A DNA stretch of 40,026 nt, taken from positions 1 through 40,026 of IMG/VR virus record IMGVR_UViG_3300016644_000071. One strand, 5' to 3'. Each line of letters opens with the position of its first letter. Positions within the stretch are counted from its first letter, which is position 1. Shown one piece after another: positions 1,568 through 40,026 of the stretch. A program made the position numbers and the translations under genes. The notes under the pieces are model-generated. The model saw nothing but the letters and a program-made list of their open reading frames with translations, ran no database searches and was not told the origin of the DNA. The DNA is from a virus.

Positions 1568-2476
1568 ATGATTAACAAACAGGAATGGTTAAAGAAACGT
1601 AAGAATTATTTAGGTGGCACTGATTTAGCTGCTATCTGCGGTTTAAATCCATATAGGACTGCTCTTGATGTATATCTAGATAAAACCAGCGACGATATAA
1701 CGGAGGAGATTAGCCCTGCCATGAGGTGGGGCAATCTTTTAGAGGATGCTGTTAGCAAGGCTTACAGCGAAGATACCGGTTATAATATAGCAATAGAGCC
1801 AAACACAATATATCACCATGAACATAAGTTTTTAGGAGCTAATATTGATCGGTGGGTTGGTGATAAAGAATATGTGCTGGAATGCAAAACAGCTGGCTTT
1901 ACTAAAGGTAAGGAATGGGGAGACTTAGGGACTGACCAAATCCCCGAATCATATCTTGTACAAGTAGCGTATTATGCTGCAATCTGTGATGTTCCTAAAG
2001 TTGATATAGCAGTACTTATAGGGGGTCAGGATTTTAGAATTTATACTTATAATAGAGATAAAAATCTAGAAGAAAAACTAATAAAAATAGGCGTTAATTT
2101 CTGGCATAACCACATAGAAAAAAGAATACCGCCTCGTTGCGTTAATACCAGAGACACATTTAACCTATTCCCGCAAAGTAATAATAAGGAAATTACTGCT
2201 AAAAATGATATATTGGCAAAAATTGAAGAATTGAAAATTGCTAAAATGTCAGAAGAACAAATACAGAAAACTATTGAAAGGTTAAAAGTTGAAATTCAGG
2301 AATTTATGCGGGATTACGACGTACTTATTGATGATAACGGTAATGTAATAGCTACATGGAAAAACACAGCTCCAAGGTCATTTTTTGACTTGAAGAAATT
2401 TAAGGAAGAGGCTAAGGAAATGTACCTGAAATACGCAAGTTATAGTAAGCAATCTAGAGTATTTTTAATTAAATGA
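1568..2476 (+). CDS. YqaJ-like (lambda-Exo type, PD-(D/E)XK) recombination exonuclease
   Basis: N-terminal LGGTDLAAICGLNPYRTALDVY is the typical YqaJ signature, with downstream ID...ECKT nuclease-core residues. Sits immediately upstream of a RecT-like gene. Confidence 0.8.
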   Translation: MINKQEWLKKRKNYLGGTDLAAICGLNPYRTALDVYLDKTSDDITEEISPAMRWGNLLEDAVSKAYSEDTGYNIAIEPNTIYHHEHKFLGANIDRWVGDKEYVLECKTAGFTKGKEWGDLGTDQIPESYLVQVAYYAAICDVPKVDIAVLIGGQDFRIYTYNRDKNLEEKLIKIGVNFWHNHIEKRIPPRCVNTRDTFNLFPQSNNKEITAKNDILAKIEELKIAKMSEEQIQKTIERLKVEIQEFMRDYDVLIDDNGNVIATWKNTAPRSFFDLKKFKEEAKEMYLKYASYSKQSRVFLIK

Positions 2477-2484
2477 GGTGAAAA

Positions 2485-3288
2485 ATGAGTAATATAGCAA
2501 CAGTTAACACGTCGACAAATATGTTTGATTTAATGGAAAAAGCTTATAAATTTGCCTGCATCATGGCTAAATCCGACATTGTCCCGAGTCATTATAGAGG
2601 AAAACCTGAAAACACTTTTATTGCAGTACAGACAGCCTACAGAATGAACCTAGACCCGATGCAAGTAATGCAGAATACTTTTGTCGTGAGCGGTAAACTT
2701 GGGATGGTAAGCGCCTTTGCAATATCCTTAGCTAATCAAAGCGGATTATTCGATAGCGGTATACGTTATAGAATAGAGGGTTGCGGCGAAGATTTAAAAG
2801 TTACTGCCTATGCTAACTTAAAAAAAGGCGGTGAAGAAATATCCTACACTATTACAATGAGGGAAGCTGTTGCGGAAGGGTGGACTAAAAACCCTAAATA
2901 CAGGACTCTACCAGAATTAATGCTAAGATACAGAGCAGCTACTCTCTTGATTCGCACACATGCCCCGGAAGTATTAAACGGCATGCACATGGTTGAAGAG
3001 ATAGAGGACGCAGTTATAGCTACTAAGGATGTAACCCCTAAATCTCAAAGCATAAGTAGCAAACTTGATACTGTGCTAGATAGTCTAGAACATGAAAAAA
3101 CAAGCGATACACTTGCGGAATTAATAGAACTTGTTAAATTGCATAACGTACCAAGCTCTATAATAGAAAAATGGTGCGATAAAGCTGGCGTTGAAAGTAT
3201 TGCCGATTTAGGGATCGAGCGACAAGCGGCTTGCATAGAATATATAAATAAACAATATAATTATGTTCAAGATATGGAGGCGGCGTAA
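2485..3288 (+). CDS. RecT/Redbeta-type single-strand annealing protein
   Basis: FIAVQTAYRMNLDPMQVMQNTFVVSGKLGMVSAFAISLANQSG resembles the conserved RecT-family core. Classic exo-SSAP gene pair. Confidence 0.75.
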   Translation: MSNIATVNTSTNMFDLMEKAYKFACIMAKSDIVPSHYRGKPENTFIAVQTAYRMNLDPMQVMQNTFVVSGKLGMVSAFAISLANQSGLFDSGIRYRIEGCGEDLKVTAYANLKKGGEEISYTITMREAVAEGWTKNPKYRTLPELMLRYRAATLLIRTHAPEVLNGMHMVEEIEDAVIATKDVTPKSQSISSKLDTVLDSLEHEKTSDTLAELIELVKLHNVPSSIIEKWCDKAGVESIADLGIERQAACIEYINKQYNYVQDMEAA

Positions 3289-3373
3289 TATATTTTTGAC
3301 CGGTTATTTTTAATAGTGTACCACTATATCGCAAAAATAGCTTCCCATAAAGCCAATAATATGCTATATTCGC

Positions 3374-3598
3374 ATGGTATTTTATATACACCTTGCAAGT
3401 ATATCTATGAAAGAATTTTTAAAAGCTATTATCTTTAGCAAATATTTTGTTGTTGTTGCAGCTATAATTATCGGTATATTGTCTGGTTACTTTTGGTATC
3501 AAGATAATCCCATTGAAGAATTTGAAGAAAAAGTCATTGAAAAAGAAACGGGGATAGATGTTGATTTAACTCCAGAAAGCGTTGAGTTCTTCAGATGA
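3374..3598 (+). CDS. putative holin (single TM; alternative start at 3407)
   Basis: 74 aa (63 aa from M12) with one hydrophobic helix (YFVVVAAIIIGILSGYFWY) and an acidic C-terminus. Its stop overlaps the endolysin ATG (ATGA at 3595-3598). Confidence 0.4.
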   Translation: MVFYIHLASISMKEFLKAIIFSKYFVVVAAIIIGILSGYFWYQDNPIEEFEEKVIEKETGIDVDLTPESVEFFR

Positions 3599-4050
3599 AA
3601 GCATCAGAGAAAGGTCTTGATCTTATTAAGAAGTTTGAGGGGTTTAAGGATTATGTATATACCTGTCCCGCAGGAAAACCTACTATAGGCTATGGCCATG
3701 TTATTGATAATAAATTACTTGATTTAATCAAGGCTACCGCCCCTATTACGGAGAGTCATGCAGAAAAACTTTTACAGGACGACGTTAAAGAGGCACAGAA
3801 CGCTATAAATTCATCTGTAAAGGTAACCCTCAAGCAAGGACAATTTGACGCTCTAGTGAGCCTTATATACAACTGGGGAGTATATAATTTTAAAATAAGT
3901 AACGGACTAAGAAAACTAAATGCCGGAGATTACAACGGAGCTGCCGATGAATTTTTTGGAAAAGTTAGAGGAGTAGTATCGGTAAACGGCAAACTTTCCA
4001 ATGGCTTATACAGAAGAAGACAGGCAGAATTGGAATTATGGCAATCTTAA
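3595..4050 (+). CDS. endolysin, GH24 (T4/lambda-type phage lysozyme)
   Basis: KGLDLIKKFEGFKDYVYTCPAGKPTIGYGH is the canonical GH24 N-terminal catalytic region. No signal or SAR segment. Confidence 0.9.
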   Translation: MKASEKGLDLIKKFEGFKDYVYTCPAGKPTIGYGHVIDNKLLDLIKATAPITESHAEKLLQDDVKEAQNAINSSVKVTLKQGQFDALVSLIYNWGVYNFKISNGLRKLNAGDYNGAADEFFGKVRGVVSVNGKLSNGLYRRRQAELELWQS

Positions 4051-4346
4051 GGCATAAATTCAAAGCTAAGCCTTGTGAAGCTGACGGCATCAAATTTGCT
4101 TCTAAAAAAGAGCATAAAAGATATCAGCAGCTTAAAATATTACAAAATAGTGGTGAAATATTATTTTTTTTAAGGCAAGTACCTTTCCATTTAGAGGCGG
4201 GTGTAAAATATGTTTGTGATTTCCTTGTATTCTGGACAAACGGCGAAGTAACTGTTGAGGATGTCAAAGGCGTAAAAACGGACATGTATATAGTTAAAAA
4301 AAAGATGGTAGAGGCAATTTATCCTATTACAATTATGGAAATCTAA
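4038..4346 (+). CDS. DUF1064-family protein (PD-(D/E)XK-like, putative junction resolvase/nuclease)
   Basis: KFKAKPCEADGIKFASKKEHKRYQQLKILQNSGEI...DFLVFW...VEDVKGVKT matches my recollection of the DUF1064 pattern. Confidence 0.65.
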   Translation: MAILRHKFKAKPCEADGIKFASKKEHKRYQQLKILQNSGEILFFLRQVPFHLEAGVKYVCDFLVFWTNGEVTVEDVKGVKTDMYIVKKKMVEAIYPITIMEI

Positions 4347-4348
4347 AC

Positions 4349-4582
4349 ATGTTTCTAATTGCTTATTTTAAAGAAATCTTACTTGGTATCGGAGCGTTCA
4401 TTGCTATTTATCTTTTTAAAAGGAATAAAACATTAACCTCTGAAAATAAAGCCCTTACAGAAAACAACATTGAAAAAGACAAAGTAATTCATATCCAGCA
4501 AAAGGTATTAGATGTTAGCGAAAGTGTTAAATCTACTGATCTTGACACTAACCTTGATCGGTTGTCAGGTAAAAACGAATAA
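4349..4582 (+). CDS. i-spanin (Rz-like) candidate
   Basis: 77 aa with an N-terminal TM (ILLGIGAFIAIYLF) followed by a charged, coiled-coil-like periplasmic part. Overlapped out of frame by a lipoprotein ORF. Confidence 0.55.
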   Translation: MFLIAYFKEILLGIGAFIAIYLFKRNKTLTSENKALTENNIEKDKVIHIQQKVLDVSESVKSTDLDTNLDRLSGKNE

Positions 4583-4754
4583 AATACCTACATTAAATTT
4601 ACCGGAAATGCCACCGATAACTAAAAAAGTAGCGGAAGAAATAAAACTGGTATGTATTCCTCGTCAAAAATGTGAGAATTTTAATAATTGGTTAAATGAA
4701 CTATACGCTTTTAAAGCTGAGTATTCTGTTTTTAAAGAAGAATTAAGTAAATAA
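4512..4754 (+). CDS. o-spanin (Rz1-like) outer-membrane lipoprotein candidate
   Basis: Signal peptide with lipobox LIGC (MLAKVLNLLILTLTLIGC|Q) and a proline-rich mature N-terminus. Starts 71 nt inside the i-spanin ORF in another frame. Confidence 0.6.
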   Translation: MLAKVLNLLILTLTLIGCQVKTNKIPTLNLPEMPPITKKVAEEIKLVCIPRQKCENFNNWLNELYAFKAEYSVFKEELSK

Positions 4755-4924
4755 TAATATAAGTCTCGTTTAAAATGAATTTTTAAAGGAGTGGGGTAAT
4801 TGTACATCAGATATTATTAAAATCAAACTATGTTAAGATTTATTGAATTAAAAAATATCTTTAATAATGATTAATAAGTAACTTATAATGGAAATAATAG
4901 CGCATCATGAATTAGATTTTAATT

Positions 4925-5608
4925 ATGGACTATCAAAAACCTTGCCAGTATTCAATAAGATTAATAGATAGGTTGAAATCACTGGATACTAAAAATGTAT
5001 TGGATTTTGATTTGATTAATAAAGCTATCTACTGGGCTAAGAAGTATCACGGCGACCAGAAGAGAAAGAGCGGTGAGGCGTATTACACACATCCCTTAGA
5101 GGTAGCTTATATGATTTCTGATTATAAGCTAAAAACTGACGTAATCGTTGCTTCTATCTTGCATGATATTATTGAGGATACACCAGTAACGGCAGGGATG
5201 ATACTTGATAATTTTAACTGGAGAATAGCTGAAATGGTTGACATGCTTACTCGTGATAGACCAGATGGAAATAAGCTAAGTGTAGAGCAGATATTGAATA
5301 ATGCTTATGACCTAAAAGACAAAGAGGTTTTACTCATAAAGTTAATTGATAGATTGCATAATATACAGACTATAGGAAGCATAGCACCTGAAAAACAGAA
5401 AAAAATAGCTCAGGAGACTTTACAAGATATAATTAGCTTAACAACTATTTTTCAGGATTTAAACTTAGAAATAGAGCTTAATACAAAAAGTCTTACCATA
5501 TTATACGGAAAGGAAATTGCCGATCAGATGATTAAAAAAAGATATAATATTTTTTCTATTTCCGATAGTTACCAACTGCCACTTCCAACTTTTCAAAATG
5601 AAATATAG
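4925..5608 (+). CDS. RelA/SpoT-family HD hydrolase domain protein, no synthetase domain (small alarmone hydrolase-like)
   Basis: YYTHPLEVA, ASILHDIIEDT (HD) and LIKLIDRLHNIQT (compare SpoT ..ADRLHNMRT). 227 aa. Confidence 0.8.
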   Translation: MDYQKPCQYSIRLIDRLKSLDTKNVLDFDLINKAIYWAKKYHGDQKRKSGEAYYTHPLEVAYMISDYKLKTDVIVASILHDIIEDTPVTAGMILDNFNWRIAEMVDMLTRDRPDGNKLSVEQILNNAYDLKDKEVLLIKLIDRLHNIQTIGSIAPEKQKKIAQETLQDIISLTTIFQDLNLEIELNTKSLTILYGKEIADQMIKKRYNIFSISDSYQLPLPTFQNEI

Positions 5609-6839
5609 CGTATATAAATCCCGCTATCATTGGCAATATAATAGCTAACATTCCCCAGTTACCGATGTACTCTGTTAAATAAGCTAAACCGAACGAAGTA
5701 ATTAAGTAAATAAATGCACGTGATATAGCATATAACATACTAGCGTAAGTAAAACGCTTAAATACTGGAAAATGTTTATAACAAATTGGCATAGCAGAAG
5801 AGTAAGAAAGCAAAAAGAAAGTTATAACCCCCTCAAAAATAAAAAATGTGTAATAATCGCAATCATGGATAATGAATGAAAACAGAACTATAAGTAATGT
5901 AAAAATTGTTACTTTAATTTTTAATAAAAGTAACGGGTAAACCCAATAACTAATAACAGTAAAAAACAAAAAGCTTAGTACTTGTATTATAGATAAAATC
6001 AAATTATGGGTAATTACTTCGGCAGAAGATAAATTGAAAGAGTTTTTTAATATTAAGGCACAATGTACATACACGAAATAAAAACATATTGGCCAAGCAC
6101 ATTGCATAAGATATAGTGCTAGAGCGGTTTTAAATTCTACTTTTTCTATATAGATTTTGTTACTTTTTTTACATTCTGCAAGTCTTTTACGAGCATCAGT
6201 AAAATCTTTTGTTTCTTTTAATAGAACTCTAGCCTTTGCACCTATTAAAGCTACTATTGCCCCAATCCAAAATACAGTACGCCAATTTAATCCGTAATTG
6301 GTAGTATACCAAGCAATAATTAAAGCCCCCATACCTCCAATACTTGAAAAAACAGTGATAGTACTTACAGAAACGTATTGTATAGGTGGTTTAGTAATTT
6401 CCGTTACGTATAACTCTGCCCCTATTACTTCTCCCATAGATGACATGCCTTGAATAATACGGCATATTGTAATAACCCAGGCAGCAGTAATACCTATTTG
6501 TTCGTAGGTTGGAAGATTTGCCATAACTACACATGAAATAGCCATCATAAAAGTAGTTATTATTACTGTTGCTTTTCGTCCTATATTATCGCCAATATAA
6601 CCAAATATTAAAGCTCCTATAGGCCTTAAAACATAAGTAGAACAAAATGCAAATGCCGCAAGTAAGGAGGCAGTGAATGGGTCAGTTTTTGGAAAAAACA
6701 ACTCATTAAGTAACACTGCCATATGAACGTAGAGCATCAAGTCAAAATACTCAAGAAACGTGCCGATAGATAATAAACCAACTGCTTCTTTCTGCTCTCT
6801 TGTAAGGCTACGTTGCTCGGCTATCATAAATATGACCAT
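5556..6839 (-). CDS. MFS transporter, metabolite:H+ symporter (MHS, ProP-like) family
   Basis: 427 aa with about 12 hydrophobic segments. N-terminal GTFLEYFDLMLYVH...LFFP and loop motif GYIGDNIGRK are MHS/ProP-type signatures. Confidence 0.85.
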   Translation of the reverse strand: MVIFMIAEQRSLTREQKEAVGLLSIGTFLEYFDLMLYVHMAVLLNELFFPKTDPFTASLLAAFAFCSTYVLRPIGALIFGYIGDNIGRKATVIITTFMMAISCVVMANLPTYEQIGITAAWVITICRIIQGMSSMGEVIGAELYVTEITKPPIQYVSVSTITVFSSIGGMGALIIAWYTTNYGLNWRTVFWIGAIVALIGAKARVLLKETKDFTDARKRLAECKKSNKIYIEKVEFKTALALYLMQCAWPICFYFVYVHCALILKNSFNLSSAEVITHNLILSIIQVLSFLFFTVISYWVYPLLLLKIKVTIFTLLIVLFSFIIHDCDYYTFFIFEGVITFFLLSYSSAMPICYKHFPVFKRFTYASMLYAISRAFIYLITSFGLAYLTEYIGNWGMLAIILPMIAGFIYAIFHFEKLEVAVGNYRK

Positions 6840-6998
6840 AACTTAATTTCTTCACATATTAGTAAAACAAATTAAATTTAGTTGTAAAAATGATTTTTAT
6901 TAAAAATATAAACATTAAACTTGTAACAGTGCTTTTTAAACCACATTTTGGGGTCTAAACGTAAACCTCAGATTTTTCCGAAATTGCAATCAACAAAT

Positions 6999-8864
6999 CT
7001 ACTTAGAGGCGTTGTTTTCCTGATTAGTTTGCTCAAGTTTTTGGACTTCTCTAAGCAAAGTAACAGGCGTATATCCTGTAATCTGTTTCATGCTTTTGCT
7101 AAAATTTACAGCATTAATATTTGTTGGTGTTTCTGCAAATTTAATAGCTAAATCCAAAGTTTTCTTATCAGTTAGTAAATGAGCAAGACCAGAGCCACCA
7201 ATTACAGCTAATACAGTTTTTTCAGGAGCAACTACTGCACCTGCTCCAGTCATAACTGAAATAAGATCAAAAGTTTTTTGAGTTACAGCTGTCCCCGATG
7301 GATTAGGAATGTTCTTATTTTTAACTGCCATAGCCCTAGCCACCTTGCTAAGCTTATCCAAACGCTCAAAAGTTTCTGGGTTGGTAATCTTTTGTAATCT
7401 AGCTCTGTTTTGTTCATCATTAAGTATTTTAGATAAACTATTATAAGACATTTCACCAGTAGCTGTATTCTCTACTTTACCAAGCATATCTTCAAGCTCT
7501 TTTCTACGTGAAAATTTTGTAAATAATTTATCAGCTTCTTTGTGATAATTAAACCAATCTGGGTTAGTTTTGCCGTATTCTGCTAAATCATTATTAATAG
7601 CATTATAAAGCCTCTTTACCATTCCAGACGCTTTTTTTTCTTTTTGCCAATTAACACTTGTGTCTTTCCAATCCACAACTTTACCAAGAGAATCTTGGCT
7701 TGCTACTAAATCCTCAACAGGACTTGGTATTCTTTTTATACCCATAGGCACAAACTTATCTTCATAATCATTAATGATACTAAGTATTCTTTTCTCCCCA
7801 GGTGATAAGGAAGCAGATTTTGCAAGATCCGCCTTGATGCTTTCAGTTACAGACGTTACATTTTTTGGAACTATCTGCGCTTCTTTAGGTAATGCTTCAC
7901 GAGAATTTAAATATAATTGACTTATCCTGTCTTCTACCCCTGCAAGCTCTGCTTTCGGCAAAGCACTATCATAAGCTTTGTCCAATTCTTGCATAACTTT
8001 ATTAGCCATTTCTGAATATCTTTTGTTCATAACTCCACTAGCTACAGGAGTTTTACTTAAAAATTGATCAGCTAAAGCAATTGCCTTTCCCTCACTTGCC
8101 GCTGCCTTTGGCAGTGCAATATCCAATCCTTGAGCCGCCTTTGCTGCTTCCAGATTTAATTTGTTTTTACCAAGTCCAACAGCAGTTAAAGCCCCTTTAG
8201 TTAATAAATTCCCGCCACCTTTAGCAATAGTTGGAGCAGCATTTACGGCTAGACCCGCAGCAAGACCTCCGCCTATTGCTTCACCGGTACTTGCTCCTTG
8301 GTCAGCTAAATAGGAAGTAGTACCGCCCATTGCAGTAGCTCCCGCAGCTTGCAGAGGGCTAGTATTGCCAATCATGCTACCAAGTTTGGCTAACCCTCCA
8401 GATGCGGTTTTTGCAAGACCTCCGCCAGTTAGAAATGATGCACCGGTTTTTAGTCCTTCATTAATATATTTCTGGTCTTCCGGGGTTGCAGTATAACCAC
8501 CTGTGGCAGTATCAATTCCTTGGTCAATAGCTTCTGTCGCTGATGGAATAAGAGGAACGGGAGCTGTCATTTCTTCAGCGGGGGCAAAATCAAAGGCGTA
8601 AGGGTTTGCTTGATAATTCCCAGCGGCAACTTGCGCATTTTGAGCCATTGCAGGTAAATTATAAGCAAGACTTAATGTATCAGGTATTGCACCAGCTACT
8701 CCCGCAGCTACGGCTTTTGCTCCTGATGCTATTCTTTGACCAATACTAGTTTCAGCTGTTGCTTGTTTCTGCGGATTATCAAACTCTTCCCAAAAATTGC
8801 TTACACCCCCTTCTTTTCCTTGTGGATTATCAAACTCCGCCCAGAAATTATTTTTGCTCATCAA
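6999..8864 (-). CDS. internal virion / ejection protein candidate (621 aa)
   Basis: Last gene of the virion operon. Contains a Gly/Ala-rich glycine-zipper-like stretch and an N-terminal duplicated motif NFW(A/E)EFDNPQ. Position corresponds to the T7 gp14-16 block. Confidence 0.4.
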   Translation of the reverse strand: MMSKNNFWAEFDNPQGKEGGVSNFWEEFDNPQKQATAETSIGQRIASGAKAVAAGVAGAIPDTLSLAYNLPAMAQNAQVAAGNYQANPYAFDFAPAEEMTAPVPLIPSATEAIDQGIDTATGGYTATPEDQKYINEGLKTGASFLTGGGLAKTASGGLAKLGSMIGNTSPLQAAGATAMGGTTSYLADQGASTGEAIGGGLAAGLAVNAAPTIAKGGGNLLTKGALTAVGLGKNKLNLEAAKAAQGLDIALPKAAASEGKAIALADQFLSKTPVASGVMNKRYSEMANKVMQELDKAYDSALPKAELAGVEDRISQLYLNSREALPKEAQIVPKNVTSVTESIKADLAKSASLSPGEKRILSIINDYEDKFVPMGIKRIPSPVEDLVASQDSLGKVVDWKDTSVNWQKEKKASGMVKRLYNAINNDLAEYGKTNPDWFNYHKEADKLFTKFSRRKELEDMLGKVENTATGEMSYNSLSKILNDEQNRARLQKITNPETFERLDKLSKVARAMAVKNKNIPNPSGTAVTQKTFDLISVMTGAGAVVAPEKTVLAVIGGSGLAHLLTDKKTLDLAIKFAETPTNINAVNFSKSMKQITGYTPVTLLREVQKLEQTNQENNASK

Positions 8865-10239
8865 TTACCTTAGCCCCTTTGCTTTTCCAATATTCTACCT
8901 GAGCAGCTGGCACAGATCTTGTACTACCATCAGGCGCTGCCATAGTAACTATTCCAGTATTAGGAGTTACAGGTTTAAACATTTCCTTAACTTTATTTTG
9001 TACTGCTAAAGAATTGTAAGGCTCACTATAACCAAATTGATTTTCAACTACATCACGGGTTAAATTATCTTTTTGTATTTGATTATCAAGCTGCGCAGCT
9101 CGCTCTAATGCTACCTGAATTGCTGCATCTGGGTTTTTATCAAGTGATGGTAACCCCGCAATAAAAGTTGCAATATCACGATCAGAAGTAGCCCCAGCAA
9201 ACATCTGTTTTATTCCCGCCATTAATGGTTGCTGATATAATTCTATCAAAGCTTGATTACGTTCGCTTTCTGTTCCAGACTTGTTAACCGCTCTTTGCGC
9301 CGTTTTTATTATACCGCTACCAGCTCTACCAAAAGCTTCTTTTTCTTTTGATATAAGACTTGCTATTTGTTTATAAGCGTTACTTTGCGTTTCAAGAGAT
9401 TGATGTTCTTTAGCAAGACTATTAACCCAAGTTTGATTGCCCTCAATAACTTTATTCATTACTGCTTCGCTATATTTAGGTTTGGGAGCTTGCATCTCAT
9501 TTTGAATTTGATTTGCTTGCTGCTGATATACTCCAGCATGAGCTTGTTTTAAATTAACGTCAGCTCTTTTGCTTTCCAAACCAAGAGCATCTTCTTGCCT
9601 TTTCATATTAAACGCATAAGCTGCATCTTTAGCAAAACCAGCATTAAGAGGCATAAATTTTTCAAACCATTGATCACCGTATATTGTTTGCGCTGCTGGT
9701 GCAACTGCGCTAACTATCTCATCCGCAGTAATCTTACGATATTCTCCCGTCTCTGTATTTAGAGCTAGACCAAAACCTCCGCTTGCATTCCAGCTGTCTC
9801 CCTCTAGATTCTCAAACCCGGGAATCATTTGTGCCTTGTTAATTAAATCCTTAAACATCATTGTTGCTCTTGGATCATTTGAATTTACAGCAGCAGCAAA
9901 TTCGGCAACAAGCGGTGTATACTTTTGGCCAAATTCGTTTACTGCTAATTGATAGCTTTGTGCTTGCTGCATTTGCGCCTCAAGTTCAGCTGCTTTTGCC
10001 GTAATACGCCCTGCTTGCTCTAGCATCGGTGATAGTTTCTGCCTTCTTTCCTCTGCTGCTGCGCCACTAATACCAGCTCCCATACCAGAAAGCATTGCAT
10101 TAGACATTCTTTGCGCTTCTCCCACAGCTGGTCCGCTTCCTACTTTAGAGAAAGCATTACCTAAATAATCAGCAAAAGTCGGTTGATTTACTAAATCCTG
10201 ATATTGATTTAAAGATTCTTTATATCCTGATGACTTCAT
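8848..10239 (-). CDS. internal virion / ejection protein candidate (463 aa)
   Basis: Helical, coiled-coil-like, Q/A-rich. Overlaps both neighbours. Call rests on synteny only. Confidence 0.35.
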   Translation of the reverse strand: MKSSGYKESLNQYQDLVNQPTFADYLGNAFSKVGSGPAVGEAQRMSNAMLSGMGAGISGAAAEERRQKLSPMLEQAGRITAKAAELEAQMQQAQSYQLAVNEFGQKYTPLVAEFAAAVNSNDPRATMMFKDLINKAQMIPGFENLEGDSWNASGGFGLALNTETGEYRKITADEIVSAVAPAAQTIYGDQWFEKFMPLNAGFAKDAAYAFNMKRQEDALGLESKRADVNLKQAHAGVYQQQANQIQNEMQAPKPKYSEAVMNKVIEGNQTWVNSLAKEHQSLETQSNAYKQIASLISKEKEAFGRAGSGIIKTAQRAVNKSGTESERNQALIELYQQPLMAGIKQMFAGATSDRDIATFIAGLPSLDKNPDAAIQVALERAAQLDNQIQKDNLTRDVVENQFGYSEPYNSLAVQNKVKEMFKPVTPNTGIVTMAAPDGSTRSVPAAQVEYWKSKGAKVIDEQK

Positions 10240-23050: not shown

Positions 23051-23614
23051 TTAAATGCGAGTTTTTAAATCTTGAACAATTTTAAATAATTCTTGAGTTG
23101 CTGCTATATTTAAAGCATACATACTATGATAATCTAATTTATGGAAATCGTTAACTTTTTTGCCATATATTAAAAATGATTCTTCTTTAATATCTAATTC
23201 ATCGCTAATTTCAAATGTATAATCATCTATAATACTTTTGACTTTAACATATCTGCGCTTATACCTATTTTCAAATGGTCCATCATTACCATCTATTATA
23301 TACTCTTTATTTTCACCATCATTACTAAAAACTAATTTGATTTCATCATCAATGTTAATATTATTAATTGTTTTGTCACTTATAATTAATTGGTTATTAT
23401 ATGTCCCCTTGGCAAAAATATTTGCTACATATTCTTCTTCATTATTGACAACAAATTCGTTTAAATCCGTTTCGTAAATATCTTGCGCTATTAAGCCAAA
23501 TTTTTTATTATAATCCTTATCTTGACATAATTTATATTCTTTAGGCTTTAATAACATTAATTTATCCAAAGGATTATCAATCTCTTTTATTTCTTTTTTT
23601 ACACGATTATCAGA
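23051..23614 (-). other. peptidase S74 / intramolecular chaperone auto-processing domain of the fibre (last 187 aa)
   Basis: The SDNRVKK motif begins at codon position 23614-23612. Followed by a LKPKEYKL....KFGLIAQDIYE pattern. Confidence 0.7.
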
Positions 23615-26600
23615 TATTTCTGATTGTGTATTTGTTTGTGTCCCATTAAACCACCAATTACTATTAATTGAAGACCCAGGATTATAATGATTAAAAGTAA
23701 AATTGCTGTTAGAGGAGTTAATATACATTTGCCAGTAATTTGTTACAGCTCTGTTATTAGTCATATATATTGTTCCTTGTAATGAAATATTACCATCGTT
23801 ATATAAATATCCTGTTACTTTTGTATCCCCGTTAACATCTAATTTATAAGATGGTGATTTTCCAATACCAACATTACCCGCAGTATCTATTCGCATTCTT
23901 TCTGAGTTATTTAGATTAAATAACATATTTCCAAGATTTGTTGTAAATCCCATGTTATTATTTCCAGTTGTATAAATTGTGTTTCCTGTATCAGCTCCAT
24001 TTATTCTAATTCCTCCAAAATCAGAATATCCAACAACTTGAAGTGCATAATTACCATCCCAACCTGCATTTTGTTGTATTCTAACTAATGGTTGAGAATA
24101 TCCAAAGGAAGAACCTTGAATAAATAATTTTGTATTTGTTGAATAATCGGATGTTGTATTAATTAATACATTACCCCCACATGATAAATTTCCATTAATT
24201 GATTTATTTCCTGAGGTTAAGTTATCAGCATACGAAGCTGTTATTCCAGTCCAAGCAGTCCATGAGTTATTTTCTTTATATCTCACGGACAAAGGAGGGT
24301 TAGTTGTATTTCTAGGCAAAGCAAATTGACAAGAATAAGAACCTGTACCTGAAACTGGATAATTAATACCTAGCCCAATTAACCAACTATAATATTGTGA
24401 ATACGCTGTACTAGGTGAATTTACATTACCCACAATAAATTTATATCCAGCTGTCGTGATAGCGTTAAAATCGTTGTTATCTCCATGATTTGCTCCCGTA
24501 TTATTAAATAAATAATTATTTATAGTATTACTTGTTGATACTCCAGTTCCTCCGTAGGTAGTTGATAGCGTGCCAGAGGTTATGTTAGTCGCGTTTAATG
24601 CTGTTAGTCCTGTCCCGCTTCCAGATATATTAGTAGCCGATAAGGTATTAGTAGTATTATTCCAAGCTAGGTTAGCGCTCTGTAGAACAGCAGTAGTTCC
24701 ATTTCCTATTAGGAGCTGTCCACTAGTTAAGGTAGTAGCACCAGTTCCTCCTTTGTCAACAGTAACCGCACTCGATAAGTTAGCTGGGTTTAATACTGTT
24801 AATCCAGTCGTTACCCCAGTCCCTCCGTAAGTAGTTGATAGTGTGCCAGAGGTTATATTAGTCGCATTTAGTGCCGTTATGGAAGTGCCTATACCTAATA
24901 AATTAGTAGCCGCTGTTAATGTATTTTGTTTAGCACTTAAATCAATACTAACTGCATTACTAGCATTAATACTTAAAGGACTAGTGAAAGTTAATTTATT
25001 ACTTAAGTTATTATAATCAATACCAGTTAAAGAAGCTCCAGTTATACCAGTTATACCAGAACCATTACCAACTATATTAGTAGCCGATAAGGTATTGGTC
25101 GTATTATTCCAAGCTAGGTTAGCGCTCTGTAGAACAGCAGTAGTTCCATTTCCTATTAGGAGCTGTCCGCTAGTTAAGGTAGTAGCACCAGTTCCTCCTT
25201 TGGCAACAGTAACCGCACTCGATAAATTAGCAGGGTTTAATACTGTTAATCCAGTCGTTACTCCAGTCCCTCCGTAGGTAGTTGATAGTGTACCAGAGGT
25301 TATATTCGTTGCGTTTAATGCTGTTAGTCCTGTCCCGCTTCCAGATATATTAGTAGCCGATAAAGTATTGGTCGTATTATTCCAAGCTAGGTTAGCGCTC
25401 TGTAGAACAGCAGTAGTTCCATTTCCTATTAGGAGCTGTCCGCTAGTTAAGGTAGTAGCACCAGTTCCTCCTTTGGCAACAGTAACCGCACTCGATAAAT
25501 TAGCAGGGTTTAATACTGTTAACCCAGTCGTTACCCCAGTCCCTCCGTAGGTAGTTGATAGTGTACCAGAGGTTATATTCGTTGCGTTTAATGCTGTTAG
25601 TCCTGTCCCGCTTCCAGATATATTAGTAGCCGATAAAGTATTGGTCGTATTATTCCAAGCTAGGTTAGCGCTCTGTAGAACAGCAGTAGTTCCATTTCCT
25701 ATTAGGAGCTGTCCACTAGTTAAGGTAGTAGCACCAGTTCCTCCTTTGTCAACAGTAACCGCACTCGATAAGTTAGCTGGGTTTAATACTGTTAATCCAG
25801 TCGTTACCCCAGTCCCTCCATATGTAGTTGATAATGTACCAGAGGTTATGTTAGTAGCGTTTAATGCTGTTATGGATGTTCCTACTCCTAATAAATTTGT
25901 TGCCGCTGTTAAATTTAGTTTTAAATTTCCAGAAACATCTAATCCAAGTGAACTGTCATATTTAAGTGTTAAGTTATTTTGAGCATCTAAATTCAGAGGT
26001 CCTTGCACTGTATAAGTTCCAGCTGGACCAACTGGTCCTTGTGGTCCTGTATCTCCTTTATCTCCTTTAGGCCCAGGTATAAAAGCGGCAGCTGCTGCTA
26101 TCGCCGCTGCTGCACTAGCACCTGCCGCTGCCGCACTACCACCTGCCGCTGTTGCACTAGCACCTGCCGCTGCCGCACTACCACCTGCCGCTGTTGCACT
26201 AGCACCTGCCGCTGCCGCACTACCACCTGCCGCTGTTGCACTAGCTTCTGCTGCCGCTGCACTAGCACCTGCCGCTGCTGCGCTATTTGCTGCTGTTGTT
26301 GCTGATGCCGTAACTGATGTTTGAGCCGAACTAATCGCTGCATCTTGAGCAGTAGTTTTTGCAATAATTTCACTTATAGTTACGTCTTGAGCGGCATCTT
26401 TTGCAGTTTTTTGAGCTAAACTTGCATCTTGAGCAGCATCTTTTGCAATAGTTGTCGCCGAAAAAGAATCATAAGCAAGTTGCAGTGTGCTTAATAATCC
26501 CGCTATTGTTGTAATAGTTTGTATAACTTCATTTAATCTGGCAGGAGTAATATAGTCAACGTTTTGTACAGCTTGTATTAATTCTCCATTTATATTTGAT

Positions 26601-27538
26601 TTGATTAAATCATTTGTAGAAAGACTTGTAACACCAAATTTTGTAAATTTAGCAGCGAATCCACTTAATATTTTTATTGTTTCAGCTATTGTATAACCAA
26701 ATTCATTGGCATAATTTCCTCTTATTGAAAAATCTGTTGGAGATATTAGTTTATGACCAATCGTAGGATACAGGGGATCTAATATGACTAACGAACCAAA
26801 AGGAATATTATTAGTATTTACATAATCCTCTCCACTAATTGCTTTAGATAACGTACCAGTTCCATTGCTTACTGTATTTTTTAAAAGTCCTGTTTCTAAA
26901 TTTCCAAGTGATTGAGCCTGAGTAAAAGTATATGTCGTTCCAAGTCCGTATAAATCTTTTAAGGCTGGAGGGATAAGAGCCATTTTAGGATTTTCCCATG
27001 TAAAGTTTACTGTGGAATTTCCCACAATAAAGTTAGCATTATCAAAACGCTTCATTATTTGAGCCGCTCTGACCTGTGTCATAGCCAATGATGAAGATAT
27101 ATCAGTTCCAATTGGATTGCCTAATGTGTCATATTTAGTTGCATAAATTTGAGGTAAGAACGGACCAGACATTACCCAGTCAAAGGCGGATAAATAATTA
27201 AAAGTAGGGTTAGGAATCCTGAAGTCACCTGTAATTGAGCTTGCAGGGTTAGGAAATACCGCCTCAGCTAAAGGTGGCAAATTTATAGTACCAATATGTA
27301 ATTCTTCTACTGGTTCATTATCATAATCACCTATCCATATCCGATTATGATCCAGTTTTTTTAATTCTTCAAAATTTCCTATTTTCCTTTTTAAATCAAT
27401 TATGTCTTGGCGGACGTCAATTAGAACTGGTGATACAAAAGACTTTCCATCTTTATCACCAAGTAATGTATATCCTTTATTTATTGGTAATTTACCAGTA
27501 ACAGGAGATATGAAATTATATAAACGATCGTACTTCAT
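23051..27538 (-). CDS. giant mosaic tail fibre (1495 aa) with a C-terminal peptidase-S74 intramolecular chaperone domain
   Basis: Contains AKDAAQD repeats, three perfect 14-aa Ala/Gly/Ser repeats, and a collagen-like run GPKGDKGDTGPQGPVGPAG (DNA 26018-26074). Also has five ~91-aa repeats (one partial), an N/G/T-rich region, and EI|SDNRVKKEIKEID...FGLIAQDI (S74 signature). Confidence 0.85.
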   Translation of the reverse strand: MKYDRLYNFISPVTGKLPINKGYTLLGDKDGKSFVSPVLIDVRQDIIDLKRKIGNFEELKKLDHNRIWIGDYDNEPVEELHIGTINLPPLAEAVFPNPASSITGDFRIPNPTFNYLSAFDWVMSGPFLPQIYATKYDTLGNPIGTDISSSLAMTQVRAAQIMKRFDNANFIVGNSTVNFTWENPKMALIPPALKDLYGLGTTYTFTQAQSLGNLETGLLKNTVSNGTGTLSKAISGEDYVNTNNIPFGSLVILDPLYPTIGHKLISPTDFSIRGNYANEFGYTIAETIKILSGFAAKFTKFGVTSLSTNDLIKSNINGELIQAVQNVDYITPARLNEVIQTITTIAGLLSTLQLAYDSFSATTIAKDAAQDASLAQKTAKDAAQDVTISEIIAKTTAQDAAISSAQTSVTASATTAANSAAAAGASAAAAEASATAAGGSAAAAGASATAAGGSAAAAGASATAAGGSAAAAGASAAAAIAAAAAFIPGPKGDKGDTGPQGPVGPAGTYTVQGPLNLDAQNNLTLKYDSSLGLDVSGNLKLNLTAATNLLGVGTSITALNATNITSGTLSTTYGGTGVTTGLTVLNPANLSSAVTVDKGGTGATTLTSGQLLIGNGTTAVLQSANLAWNNTTNTLSATNISGSGTGLTALNATNITSGTLSTTYGGTGVTTGLTVLNPANLSSAVTVAKGGTGATTLTSGQLLIGNGTTAVLQSANLAWNNTTNTLSATNISGSGTGLTALNATNITSGTLSTTYGGTGVTTGLTVLNPANLSSAVTVAKGGTGATTLTSGQLLIGNGTTAVLQSANLAWNNTTNTLSATNIVGNGSGITGITGASLTGIDYNNLSNKLTFTSPLSINASNAVSIDLSAKQNTLTAATNLLGIGTSITALNATNITSGTLSTTYGGTGVTTGLTVLNPANLSSAVTVDKGGTGATTLTSGQLLIGNGTTAVLQSANLAWNNTTNTLSATNISGSGTGLTALNATNITSGTLSTTYGGTGVSTSNTINNYLFNNTGANHGDNNDFNAITTAGYKFIVGNVNSPSTAYSQYYSWLIGLGINYPVSGTGSYSCQFALPRNTTNPPLSVRYKENNSWTAWTGITASYADNLTSGNKSINGNLSCGGNVLINTTSDYSTNTKLFIQGSSFGYSQPLVRIQQNAGWDGNYALQVVGYSDFGGIRINGADTGNTIYTTGNNNMGFTTNLGNMLFNLNNSERMRIDTAGNVGIGKSPSYKLDVNGDTKVTGYLYNDGNISLQGTIYMTNNRAVTNYWQMYINSSNSNFTFNHYNPGSSINSNWWFNGTQTNTQSEISDNRVKKEIKEIDNPLDKLMLLKPKEYKLCQDKDYNKKFGLIAQDIYETDLNEFVVNNEEEYVANIFAKGTYNNQLIISDKTINNINIDDEIKLVFSNDGENKEYIIDGNDGPFENRYKRRYVKVKSIIDDYTFEISDELDIKEESFLIYGKKVNDFHKLDYHSMYALNIAATQELFKIVQDLKTRI
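24545..25900. repeat. 273-bp (91-aa) near-identical in-frame repeats: three tandem copies (about 25075-25895) plus about 1.3 copies (about 24545-24900), separated by about 174 bp of unique sequence
   Basis: The landmark CCGTA(G/A)GTAGTTGATA recurs at about 24551, 24824, 25271, 25544 and 25817, at spacings of 273, 447, 273 and 273. Identical antisense shadow ORFs at 25095 and 25368 show the DNA identity. Confidence 0.9.
26112..26237. repeat. three perfect tandem copies of a 42-bp GC-rich unit (GCACTAGCACCTGCCGCTGCCGCACTACCACCTGCCGCTGTT), encoding (ATAAGGSAAAAGAS)x3 on the coding strand
   Basis: Units at 26112-26153, 26154-26195 and 26196-26237 read as identical. Degenerate copies flank them (about 26098-26290). 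Confidence 0.9.
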
Positions 27539-40004: not shown

Positions 40005-40026
40005 ACCTATATAATTATCAAAACTT
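40005..40026. repeat. terminal direct repeat, copy 2
   Basis: Identical to 1-22. Confidence 0.9.

Follow-up and report, generated by a model that had tools for sequence, protein, structure and literature searches.

The genomes of the Rickettsia family are tiny yet rich in stand-alone SpoT hydrolases and ProP-like transporters. In R. felis, seven spoT genes, all of them transcribed, have been noted to have an MFS gene as neighbour (Ogata et al., 2005, PMC1166351). A Rickettsiales-specific group of SpoT-type hydrolases called rickSpo, which is also expanded in Cand. Amoebophilus, has proliferated together with mobile elements (Atkinson et al., 2011, PMC3153485). In Rickettsia, genes for ProP and SpoT often accompany mobile elements (PMC4316617), and SpoT hydrolases are among the cargo of the RAGE integrative conjugative elements of Rickettsiales (PMC10197636).

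Here, a SpoT hydrolase gene (HD gene) and a transporter gene (MFS gene) are described, which appear to travel as one cassette on a phage of a bacterium living inside protist cells. The whole stretch of DNA analysed (the window, 40,026 nucleotides of the IMG/VR record IMGVR_UViG_3300016644_000071) has an exact 22-bp terminal overlap, which indicates a circular assembly. It is collinear with the Megaira phage MAnkyphage_25.80 (OP381185) at 82–90% nucleotide identity. The window is a complete circular relative of this phage of about 40 kb, and as part of the reading given below the phage is probably a MAnkyphage-like podophage whose host is Megaira or a bacterium closely related to it.

The two ORFs (227 aa on the + strand and 427 aa on the − strand) are convergent and have 53 bp in common at their 3′ ends (Table 1), with no terminator between them. 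On these points, the ORF coordinates, a codon-level view and a terminator scan agree with the original prediction. Left of the pair, the + strand encodes an endolysin (3595–4050), a DUF1064 protein (4038–4346) and spanin-like ORFs (4349–4754), while the final gene of the leftward virion block lies on the − strand to the right (6999–8864). The flanking genes therefore place the pair where the rightward arm, past the spanins, meets the end of the leftward virion operon, which is the moron position that had been proposed.

Phage morons are extra genes between conserved phage genes, often with a promoter of their own. In a blastn comparison with MAnkyphage_25.80, homology around the slot is found only at 3594–4752 and 7015–9000, and the space between is taken up in the sister phage by 2.2 kb of other genes (DUF4065, RelE/ParE and RHH; toxin-antitoxin, TA). 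Since toxin-antitoxin genes occupy the same slot in the sister phage, 4753–7014 is exchangeable cargo, an insert between conserved backbone genes that a close relative lacks, and the suggested moron-type island is thereby supported. The GC content of this slot is 0.31 in comparison to 0.336 for the whole genome.

An assembly artefact, by which host chromosomal DNA would have ended up in the phage contig, has to be considered, as the window is a metagenome-type assembly and the many host paralogues of both genes could confuse an assembler. Nevertheless, the overlap at the ends is exact and self-closing, the collinearity with a published phage holds to the left and to the right of the slot, a pair occupies the same slot in an independent IMG/VR contig (L022), and the same cassette turns up in other phage contexts in independent samples. 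An artefact of this kind is thus extremely improbable.

The reading we prefer, to which a probability of roughly 0.6 is given, is that 4753–7014 represents a self-contained two-gene moron of Rickettsiaceae origin, an alarmone-lowering and solute-import unit that has an ancestral overlap and uses several vehicles. Here, the HD gene product would degrade (p)ppGpp-type alarmones, and the MFS gene product, as an MHS-type proton symporter, would take up a small organic solute from the eukaryotic cytoplasm in which the bacterium lives. Both genes would be inherited, moved and recombined as a unit and would probably be expressed from a promoter-like region of its own. The convergent, terminator-less and dual-coding 3′ overlap would be ancestral to the whole pair family, and the phage would be one of several vehicles, the others being plasmids, transposon-rich regions and chromosomes. 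A bacterium that is infected or carries the phage might be pushed to a "fed, growing" state with low alarmone and more import, in favor of phage production or carrier fitness, and each transcript would presumably run antisense into the other gene, coupling the expression of both.

Table 1. Features of the cassette and its edges (positions in the window)
Feature	Position	Strand	Basis or remark
Exchangeable cargo slot between lysis genes and virion operon end, here with the HD-MFS cassette	4753..7014	.	blastn vs MAnkyphage_25.80
Hairpin CTCGTTTAAAA-loop-TTTTAAAGGAG, candidate terminator/insulator or operator	4765..4791	+	Cassette left edge, directly past spanin-like ORF
HD promoter-like region: palindrome ATCTTTAATAATGAT (4857–4871) overlapping −35-like TTAATA, then TATAAT (4884–4889)	4857..4889	+	Sigma-70-like, 10/12
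HD gene: stand-alone SpoT/Rel-type HD hydrolase, small alarmone hydrolase (SAH), 227 aa	4925..5608	+	HD_4, catalytic residues
Dual-coding 3′ overlap: HD ...SYQLPLPTFQNEI-stop (+), MFS ...FHFEKLEVAVGNYRK-stop (−)	5556..5608	.	Codon-level view
MFS gene: MFS transporter, metabolite:H+ symporter (MHS) type, 427 aa, intact	5556..6839	-	Sugar_tr/MFS_1, TIGR00883, AF2
MFS upstream region: palindrome TAAAAATCATTTTTA (6885–6899); candidate promoter TTTACA-N18-TACTAAT (6858–6888)	6840..6917	-	Homology to L002

In the HD gene product, Pfam recognizes HD_4 (9.5e-20, residues 34–167), which supports the SpoT-like hydrolase domain called before. The protein matches the RelA/SpoT model TIGR00691 at positions 1–169 of 687 only, and it consists of the HD hydrolase domain alone, without synthetase, TGS and ACT domains, as in a SAH. 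The residues H56, H80, D81, E84, D85 and D142 (in DRLHN) align to Rel/RelA structures, so that the equivalents of H53, H77, D78 and D144 of Rel_seq as well as the ED pair are all there, and the catalytic residues are invariant in 24 homologues. The AF2 model has a pLDDT of 77.5, and the tail (210–227) is predicted to be disordered. With these features, the protein should degrade (p)ppGpp-type alarmones. SAHs of the MESH1 type can take non-alarmone substrates.

More than 1700 homologues of the hydrolase were found, the best being proteins of 216–239 aa, and the few among the best matches with an organism name belong to Megaira. Its centre in Rickettsiales with Megaira as best named matches, its many paralogues and the transposases nearby agree with the published description of the rickSpo group. 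The dN/dS of the HD gene is 0.11–0.22, and for the catalytic part in the phage-borne copies an omega of 0.06–0.15 was obtained.

A second SAH, overlooked in the original prediction, is located at 31187–31711 in a different cargo slot and is of phage type (phrog_990-type). In the deposited genome of MAnkyphage_25.80, neither a SAH nor the genes of the pair were found. This second, phage-type SAH in another slot, with none in the sister phage, supports the value of alarmone hydrolysis to the phage.

Counter-defence would be another use of the hydrolase, which might destroy the alarmone-type signals or toxins of abortive-infection toxic small alarmone synthetases (SAS), the transporter being a linked passenger. 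SAHs neutralise toxic SASs and act as the antitoxins in toxSAS systems (Jimmer et al., 2020, PMC7229694). There are families of phage SAHs (phrog_990), the window phage has two SAHs, the slot of the sister phage holds DUF4065 and RelE/ParE, and MazEF is found beside the pair in L007–L010. However, no SAS gene adjoins the pair in any locus inspected, the hydrolase is of host type, and the same pair occurs in chromosomes far from any phage. Furthermore, neither protein has a match in a PADLOC search (E ≤ 0.01), and the linkage to the MFS gene would be left unexplained, which makes counter-defence improbable. The second SAH has no match in this search likewise; the identity of the pair as a defence or TA system was rejected on this empty result.

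For the MFS gene product, Pfam reveals Sugar_tr (2.7e-20) and MFS_1 (5.4e-17), in line with the earlier domain call. The best NCBIfam model is TIGR00883 (metabolite/H+ symporter, 4e-47), which is matched over the full length (26–406) with 161 bits in comparison to a curated cutoff of 443. Since this is the best full-length match though below the cutoff, the transporter is, judged by its profile matches, a divergent MHS branch and not a curated member. The MHS signatures LEYFD and GDNIGRK, whose presence had been pointed out, are invariant in the family alignment, and motif A reads G80-Y-I-G-D84-N-I-G87-R88-K89 between TM2 and TM3. Every invariant residue of the 28-sequence family alignment is retained, and the AF2 model (pLDDT 80, pTM 0.81) displays the MFS fold with two six-helix bundles, its 12 TM helices agreeing with the approximately 12 segments expected, and a central loop helix. 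Signs of decay were looked for and, with these residues and this model, the transporter proved to be intact.

The attribute "ProP-like" stands only loosely. The best profiles are MHS models, but the ProP model is matched with 94 bits in comparison to a cutoff of 544, and the protein ends 12 residues past TM12, without the ProP C-terminal extension. Therefore, osmolyte specificity cannot be derived from this likeness. Foldseek gives TM-scores of 0.65–0.74 to many MFS structures, which are generic matches only, and in a PDB sequence search only the N-domain of a fungal phosphate transporter was matched; a substrate assignment was rejected since these matches are too generic.

The HD/MFS pair was found in 33 non-redundant places, namely phage contigs, a Megaira plasmid as well as Tisiphia and Rickettsia chromosomes, and related phages hold it in three different genome slots. 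It is convergent in the window, in L002–L011, in every one of the 12 IMG/VR contigs that a search with the HD protein retrieved, and in 19 genomic loci; the loci with convergent HD partners include those of Tisiphia, Rickettsia and Rickettsiales MAGs. The named homologues of both proteins come almost all from Megaira, Tisiphia, Rickettsia or Trichorickettsia, and among 50,697 deposited phage records there is no close copy. The pair is also present on a contig that is labelled Gammaproteobacteria (L057) and may be misbinned. An MFS homologue of the Amoebophilaceae (L056) is without a called HD neighbour and therefore does not show that both genes crossed phyla together. The pair is no odd acquisition by a phage. 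The census together with the R. felis study (PMC1166351) identifies it as a characteristic Rickettsiaceae spoT-MFS pair, which the original prediction had missed, and the simplest reading is therefore a host-type mobile cassette.

The alleles of this cassette are mosaic. In L022, the flanking virion proteins are 90–97% identical to those of the window, whereas the pair is only 62/57% identical, with a mosaic junction, and dS jumps along the cassette. In NJ trees, built without support values, the phage HDs form one clade and the MFS partners interleave with chromosomal alleles. From these patterns, the cassette appears to recombine with chromosomal alleles.

Recombination and mobility would also be expected of a passenger or selfish cassette, which hitch-hikes and recombines with resident paralogues without a benefit to the phage, its overlap having arisen by neutral stop-codon drift. 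Since Rickettsiaceae genomes hold many paralogues, such a cassette would recombine easily into replicons with a resident copy. Copies of the pair lie next to transposases and on plasmids, and the chromosomal copies L027 and L032 have lost the catalytic H/D residues with the arrangement kept. In the closest relatives, the MFS gene is damaged next to an intact HD gene, either by a +1 homopolymer frameshift (L002) or by loss of the first ~32 codons (L003–L005), and selection on the transporter in the phage context may therefore be weak or intermittent. A mere passenger is at odds with the selection acting on the phage copies: the dN/dS of the MFS gene is 0.09–0.31, an omega of ~0.1–0.3 in both genes indicates purifying selection, and the catalytic part of the HD gene is under the strongest constraint given above. 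The fully intact window copy, the constant occurrence of the pair in the retrieved IMG/VR contigs and the independent acquisition of the second SAH by the phage speak against it as well.

The overlap bears on this question too. In a census using strict stop codons, 30 of the 33 non-redundant pairs have overlapping 3′ ends (4–185 bp) and 3 pairs have lost the overlap, in comparison to 0/16 for the other convergent ORF pairs of the same Rickettsiaceae loci. The HD/MFS overlap thus exceeds chance, which is hard to square with pure neutrality. Nevertheless, its length drifts, the HD tail is disordered and less constrained, and stop-mutation drift is the accepted origin of convergent overlaps (PMC2174442), as the passenger would have it. 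Taken together, a cassette of no use to the phage is conceivable though rather unlikely.

Within the reading of a functional Rickettsiaceae moron, the overlap is, on the evidence of census and alignments, an old and conserved trait of the pair family and not a phage quirk. The conserved MFS tail HFEKLE..GNY reads on the opposite strand as the HD tail YQLP.P.FQN, and both motifs are conserved in the alignments across the pair family. A common frame phase (123:132) is present in 25/30 overlaps. The same phase is the commonest among prokaryotic convergent overlaps generally (49%, PMC2174442), and it was therefore rejected as proof of common descent and serves as supporting evidence only. The conservation over the whole family lends support to the idea that the overlap matters. 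It could also be an inherited trait that is merely tolerated and has no regulatory role, since its length is variable, the MFS tail motif is kept even without an HD neighbour, and the disordered HD tail it encodes evolves faster.

No terminator-like hairpin was detected in 5556–5608 by the terminator scan, so that the transcripts of both genes must overlap. On neither strand is the overlap RNA more strongly folded than shuffled sequence (z +0.67 and +0.28), and Rfam gave no matches within 4300–7300 (E ≤ 1); a hidden RNA element or terminator in the overlap was rejected on these grounds. In R. prowazekii, transcription of convergent genes mostly runs on without termination and gives antisense RNA (PMC3027695), which makes antisense transcription plausible for the pair. 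The PatH-Cap dataset (PMC12803143) contains 310 antisense RNAs. Antisense coupling and a reprogramming of the stringent response are both plausible proposals. A stronger version would see rickSpo-MFS as an obligate two-gene switch, in which antisense RNA would either flip the cell from "import" to "alarmone clearance" and back or cause both messages to be degraded together, and tailed phages, alongside conjugative elements and transposons, would shuffle the alleles between Rickettsiaceae genomes. This builds on converging genes with no terminator and a common coding sequence, where transcription of one makes antisense to the other, and we consider it doubtful. If it were true, it would help to account for the many spoT and proP paralogues whose spread in the reduced Rickettsiaceae genomes has long been noted.

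At the left edge of the cassette, the hairpin (−8.8 kcal/mol, z −2.05) is kept as CTCCTTTAAAT..ATTTAAAGGAG in the alignment with cassette copies at other genome slots. The region 4857–4889 is the best sigma-70-like match in the region and is conserved across cassette slots (L003, L011, L015, L017, L018, L022 and L023), and it may act as the HD promoter; promoter-like sites in this AT-rich region are not enriched over shuffles. On the MFS side, L002, with its cassette placed behind the terminase gene, is homologous up to 6917, so the upstream region travels along in one relative. A consensus scan called no promoter at 6840–6917, and read-through from the virion operon is therefore an equally good source of MFS transcripts. 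As candidates for an expression independent of the neighbouring operons, the cassette has the conserved promoter-like region and the hairpin upstream, and no terminator was found downstream of it.

That the overlapping arrangement is conserved speaks for a link between the two functions, and the overlap itself may be a regulator. Here, alarmone lowering and the import of host-cell metabolites may be one coordinated act, and phages may be an exchange route for the SpoT and ProP-like families. Furthermore, few phages are known to carry a complete secondary transporter, and the one described here would draw its substrate from the cytoplasm of a eukaryote, two levels above the phage.

Compared with known systems, both gene families are already known, and the phage vehicle and the conserved overlap appear undescribed in the literature covered, outside of which the original MAnkyphage paper (Curr Biol 2023) falls. 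The transporter resembles the E. coli ProP/MHS symporters (TC 2.A.1.6: ProP, KgtP, ShiA, TcuC) in its 12 TMs, the motif A GDNIGRK after TM2, the acidic E..D signature in TM1 and its best profile matches, which are MHS models. In contrast to curated members, it stays at 161 vs 443 and, for ProP, 94 vs 544 bits, and with 427 aa it lacks the ProP C-terminal extension. Like the phage SAHs (phrog_990) and the SAH antitoxins of toxSAS systems, the hydrolase is a single-domain SpoT-type enzyme on a phage, whereas it is of host type and its partner is a transporter and not a synthetase.

Like phage morons, the cassette is an insert at a module boundary, is lacking in a sister phage, brings along a conserved promoter-like region and is slightly lower in GC content. 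It differs from them as a convergent two-gene unit without a downstream terminator, which moreover recurs as a module on chromosomes and plasmids of the host lineage. With the RAGE cargo it has in common that mobile elements spread genes for stand-alone SpoT hydrolases among obligate intracellular bacteria, but here a tailed phage takes the place of the conjugative element as vehicle, and two genes form the unit.

With rickSpo, the hydrolase has in common the HD domain only, the closest named relatives in Rickettsiaceae, many paralogues and the association with mobile elements, while the window member is phage-borne, of which the study on this group (PMC3153485) reports no example. The closest likeness in arrangement is given by the spoT-MFS pairs of R. 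felis, which combine a stand-alone SpoT hydrolase ORF carrying the Rel_seq catalytic residues with a "proline/betaine-type" MFS, both belonging to multi-copy paralogous families as for the window pair. The earlier study described chromosomal adjacency only (Ogata et al., 2005, PMC1166351), and to this the present analysis adds convergence, the 3′ overlap, the dual-coded tails, a common upstream region and carriage by a phage.

The window phage carries, in an exchangeable slot, a host-type, intact and selectively constrained cassette of two convergent genes, a hydrolase (HD) and a transporter (MFS) gene. The cassette's upstream region is conserved, and the cassette is one member of a mobile family of such pairs whose dual-coding overlap is conserved too. 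The window matches the Megaira polyxenophila phage MAnkyphage_25.80 (OP381185, 38.4 kb, circular), here called the sister phage, with ~82% identity in the region around the cassette, and is collinear with it throughout at 80–90% identity except for a few replaced segments. Furthermore, positions 1–22 are identical to 40005–40026, an exact 22-bp terminal overlap, which is the signature of a circular assembly. From this collinearity and the terminal repeat it follows that the window is the complete, circularly closed genome (~40,004 bp) of a MAnkyphage-like podophage. Its gene content comprises portal, capsid, gp11/gp12-type tail tubular proteins, a patatin-like gene and a 4.5-kb tail-fibre gene, in which an internal repeat block (~24539–25921) gives many staggered matches to the fibre gene of the sister phage. 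As host it has Megaira, an obligate intracellular member of the Rickettsiaceae that lives in protists and algae, or a closely related bacterium.

The positions first proposed for the two genes proved exact: the reading frames of 227 and 427 aa converge and have 53 bp in common. Upstream of the hydrolase gene, the plus strand encodes endolysin, a DUF1064 protein and spanin-like ORFs, and upstream of the transporter gene lies, on the minus strand, the last gene of the long leftward virion block. The DUF1064 gene overlaps the endolysin 3' end by 13 bp, an arrangement found identically in the sister phage. Homology to the sister phage ends at 4752 and restarts at 7015, and since the slot holds different genes there, the reading as a 'moron island' is supported. 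Neither an HD nor an MFS homologue is present anywhere in the sister phage genome, and among 50,697 deposited phage records no close copy of the pair genes was found, all matches being below 40% identity and many of them bacterial contigs. The slot seems to gather toxin-antitoxin-like and physiology-modifying modules.

Features of the window and of the compared loci
Feature	Location	Strand	Details
DUF1064 gene	4038-4346	+	PHROG 'Holliday junction resolvase'; in lysis block between endolysin and spanin-like ORFs
Hairpin	4765-4791		-8.8 kcal/mol, z -2.05
Palindrome	4857-4871		overlaps -35-like hexamer
TATAAT box	4884-4889		
Hydrolase gene	4925-5608	+	HD
Transporter gene	5556-6839	-	MFS
Palindrome	6885-6899		upstream of transporter; seen by eye
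Tail-fibre gene	23051-27538	-	1495 aa; Peptidase_S74 chaperone domain
Counterpart of sister phage's 'patatin'	27535-28578		next to tail-fibre gene
Second hydrolase gene	31187-31711	-	stand-alone HD_4, 174 aa, HD and ED motifs present; phrog_990 4e-38
Sister phage slot	L001 6754-8956 = OP381185 22883-25085		small hypothetical gene, DUF4065 protein, another small gene, RelE/ParE-RHH toxin-antitoxin pair
Slot 1	lysis/virion junction		window, L022
Slot 2	regulatory region beside CCDC90-like gene		L003/4, L011, L013-L021, L023/24
Slot 3	directly after terminase gene		L002
L002	13-kb contig		convergent pair
L003-L006	lake-metagenome contigs		pair beside RecT/YqaJ recombination genes
L007-L010	short contigs		MazEF directly beside pair
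L011	Megaira plasmid, phage-like region		convergent pair
L013-L024	IMG/VR viral contigs retrieved with hydrolase		pair in 12/12
L057	4001-5978 of contig k141_1072773, NCBI protein name 'Gammaproteobacteria bacterium'		pair, 116-bp overlap

The hydrolase matches HD_4/HD and the transporter Sugar_tr/MFS_1 in Pfam. In NCBIfam, the hydrolase covers only the N-terminal hydrolase part of the RelA/SpoT model (positions 1–169 of 687) and the transporter fits best, over its full length, a metabolite/H+ symporter (MHS) model (4e-47; ProP 7e-27), all scores of both proteins lying far below the curated cutoffs. The residues by which hydrolase competence of Rel/SpoT proteins is judged (H56, H80-D81, E84-D85 and D142 in DRLHN) are kept and invariant among 24 homologues. 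Aligned over its entire length with 27 relatives, the transporter retains every invariant residue, and its motifs GTFLEYFD in TM1, RPxGALxFGxxGDxxGR (motif A), CRxxQGxxxGE and PVFKRFTY are kept. An AlphaFold model shows 12 TM helices (pLDDT 80, pTM 0.81). The invariant residues and this model argue against decay of the transporter, in line with the original prediction. The label 'ProP-like' applies as loosely as it does to the Rickettsia paralogues, and no further; the C-terminal extension of ProP is absent here, and no substrate was indicated by structure or sequence searches. Compared with ten phage- or MGE-borne copies, one on the Megaira plasmid and nine on phage-type contigs, Nei-Gojobori dN/dS is 0.11–0.22 for the whole hydrolase, 0.06–0.15 for residues 1–150 and 0.2–0.6 for its C-terminal third, and 0.09–0.31 for the transporter. 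Both genes look functional in the window.

In the closest relatives the transporter is broken. In L002 it is split by a +1 frameshift at a T7/T8 run, so that this copy may be a true pseudogene or may owe the shift to slippage or faulty sequencing. In L003–L005 it is missing the first ~32 codons, and with them the TM1 signature. All these contigs retain an intact hydrolase. Mainly because of this damage, a purely selfish or passenger cassette, with the overlap as a neutral legacy, stays a serious alternative. It was also considered that the hydrolase might serve in counter-defence and the transporter be just a passenger. In the mechanism proposed here, the hydrolase would, judging by its family, remove the 3'-pyrophosphate of (p)ppGpp-type alarmones, and the transporter would take up a small organic solute from the cytoplasm of the eukaryotic host by proton symport. 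Both together might push the bacterium to a growth-permissive state, benefiting phage production or the carrier cell.

Furthermore, the window phage has two alarmone-hydrolase-type genes in two cargo slots. The second one shares only 31% identity with the first and lies in another replaced segment (~30000–33147), where MAnkyphage_25.80 has a resolvase; no small alarmone hydrolase (SAH) is present anywhere in the sister phage genome. The acquisition of this second, phage-type SAH suggests that alarmone hydrolysis is useful to the window phage.

Cassettes occupying other slots share the conserved region upstream of the hydrolase, which contains a hairpin, a palindrome and a TATAAT box. Since promoter-like matches are not enriched in this AT-rich DNA, we only infer that it represents the cassette's own promoter/operator with an upstream insulator. 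Upstream of the transporter, the promoter scan called none; by eye, a candidate promoter (TTTACA-N18-TACTAAT) and a palindrome were seen, and transcripts could just as well come from the virion operon by read-through.

As first noted, the genes converge without a terminator: a terminator-like hairpin is absent in and near the overlap. On neither strand is the folding of the overlap RNA stronger than that of shuffled sequence, and Rfam gave no match within 4300–7300. With strict stop-codon calling, 30 of 33 non-redundant adjacent convergent pairs overlap, namely 14 of 14 in phage/MGE contexts (25–119 bp) and 16 of 19 in genomic contexts (4–185 bp), although the proteins have diverged to 30–60% identity. 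All 16 control convergent pairs of ORFs of at least 150 aa from the same genomic loci lie apart (+4 to +1713 bp). One frame phase is common to 25 of the 30 overlaps; as this phase is the commonest among convergent overlaps generally (49%; PMC2174442), it serves as supporting evidence only.

The decisive evidence for an ancestral dual-coding overlap lies in the residue-level tail motifs. The hydrolase motif D.YQLP.P.FQN(D/E), which can still be made out at 30% identity, is encoded opposite the conserved C-terminal motif HFEKLE(KE).GNY of the transporters. Since the latter is also conserved in transporter paralogues without a hydrolase neighbour, it is under protein-level selection of its own, and at least part of the hydrolase tail is its mirror image. 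This fits the AlphaFold model, in which the overlap-encoded tail (residues 210–227) is the sole disordered part of the hydrolase. The 53 bp are thus no accident of the window phage. The overlap has belonged to the pair family from its origin onwards, and its maintenance by regulation or mere tolerance are alike possible. In R. prowazekii, termination at convergent genes commonly fails and antisense RNA is made (PMC3027695), so that overlapping transcripts can be expected at the pair. More speculatively, convergent transcription across the overlap might couple or toggle expression of both genes. In two Rickettsiales MAGs (L027, L032), chromosomal HD genes (~5220–5936) lack the catalytic His/Asp (…IMQFLVQD… vs …ILHDIIED…) and remain convergent to the MFS gene, which they overlap by 107 bp, and they keep the FQN tail; these copies are either decaying or have a non-enzymatic role.

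The pair moves as one unit and is carried by phages, in three types of slot. The viral contigs and the window have early genes in common (w652-like, exonuclease, RecT, w34252-like; 50–80% amino-acid identity), which places them in one broad phage family. DNA homology between window and L003 spans 4755–6743, including 170 bp upstream of the hydrolase from just past the spanin stop codon, and that with L002 spans 4931–6917, including 78 bp upstream of the transporter. An assembly chimera is very unlikely because of the circular closure and these independent contigs. L002 (GCA_029980445.1 contig JARYGD010001076.1, region 1808–6741) has a ResT/TelK protelomerase-like gene near the terminase gene, a hint of a linear plasmid-prophage lifestyle.

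Convergent pairs were also found at 19 non-redundant genomic loci. Eighteen, from 30 loci retrieved with the transporter, belong to Tisiphia, Rickettsia, Rickettsiales MAGs and plasmid pRau02; the 19th is a MAG contig labelled Gammaproteobacteria (L057, the same sequence as L058), so that the pair has either spread laterally beyond Rickettsiales or the contig was misbinned. There, the pair adjoins IS110-type and Transposase_31 genes. In the Tisiphia endosymbiont of Thecophora atra (L012, OZ032145, 6001–10048), a DDE transposase inserted between MFS and HD splits the chromosomal pair. The transporter family grows locally through tandem duplication; in Tisiphia and Rickettsia loci (L040, L031, L034, L049), two to four MFS paralogues stand in tandem with a single HD gene converging on one.

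In the independent IMG/VR contig L022, where the pair occupies the slot that it has in the window, flanking virion proteins are 90–97% identical and the pair only 62/57%. In the DNA, 87–92% identity to the window is confined to the initial ~200 bp of the hydrolase gene and the initial ~460 bp of the transporter gene, the centre being replaced; across loci, the 5' ~450 bp and ~430 bp, respectively, are conserved and the centre is variable. Between window and L003, dS is 1.28 for hydrolase codons 1–150 and 0.05 from codon 150 onwards. In neighbour-joining trees (no support values), phage-borne hydrolases form one clade and their transporter partners interleave with chromosomal alleles. Mosaic, dS jump and trees together suggest that phage cassettes and resident paralogues have exchanged alleles repeatedly.

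The pair had been regarded as an unusual phage acquisition. This was not borne out, as named homologues and literature place the module in the host lineage. Among more than 1700 hydrolase homologues, the best are stand-alone HD proteins of ~216–239 aa, mostly on unnamed metagenome contigs; the few with an organism name are all Megaira, one on a Megaira polyxenophila plasmid. Named transporter relatives are almost all chromosomal 'MFS / proline-betaine-like' proteins of Tisiphia, Rickettsia or Trichorickettsia (55–64% identity). The HD-MFS pair is a RICKETTSIACEAE hallmark and a signature module of the host lineage itself. The literature searched contained no description of tailed phages that carry it in several slots and exchange its alleles, of its conserved convergent, terminator-less, dual-coding overlap or of its shared control region.

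Both gene families are already known, as is the fact that they have proliferated and lie side by side. R. felis has 14 spoT paralogues, all transcribed, seven of which adjoin an MFS gene of proline/betaine type (PMC1166351). Such stand-alone hydrolases form the 'rickSpo' SAH group, Rickettsiales-specific except for an expansion in Cand. Amoebophilus, and their proliferation went along with transposable elements (PMC3153485). SpoT hydrolases are among the standard cargo of the conjugative element RAGE (PMC10197636), and for ProP and SpoT genes an association with mobile elements is described as common (PMC4316617). The cassette bears, in a testable way, on the old question why reduced rickettsial genomes retain many spoT/proP paralogues.
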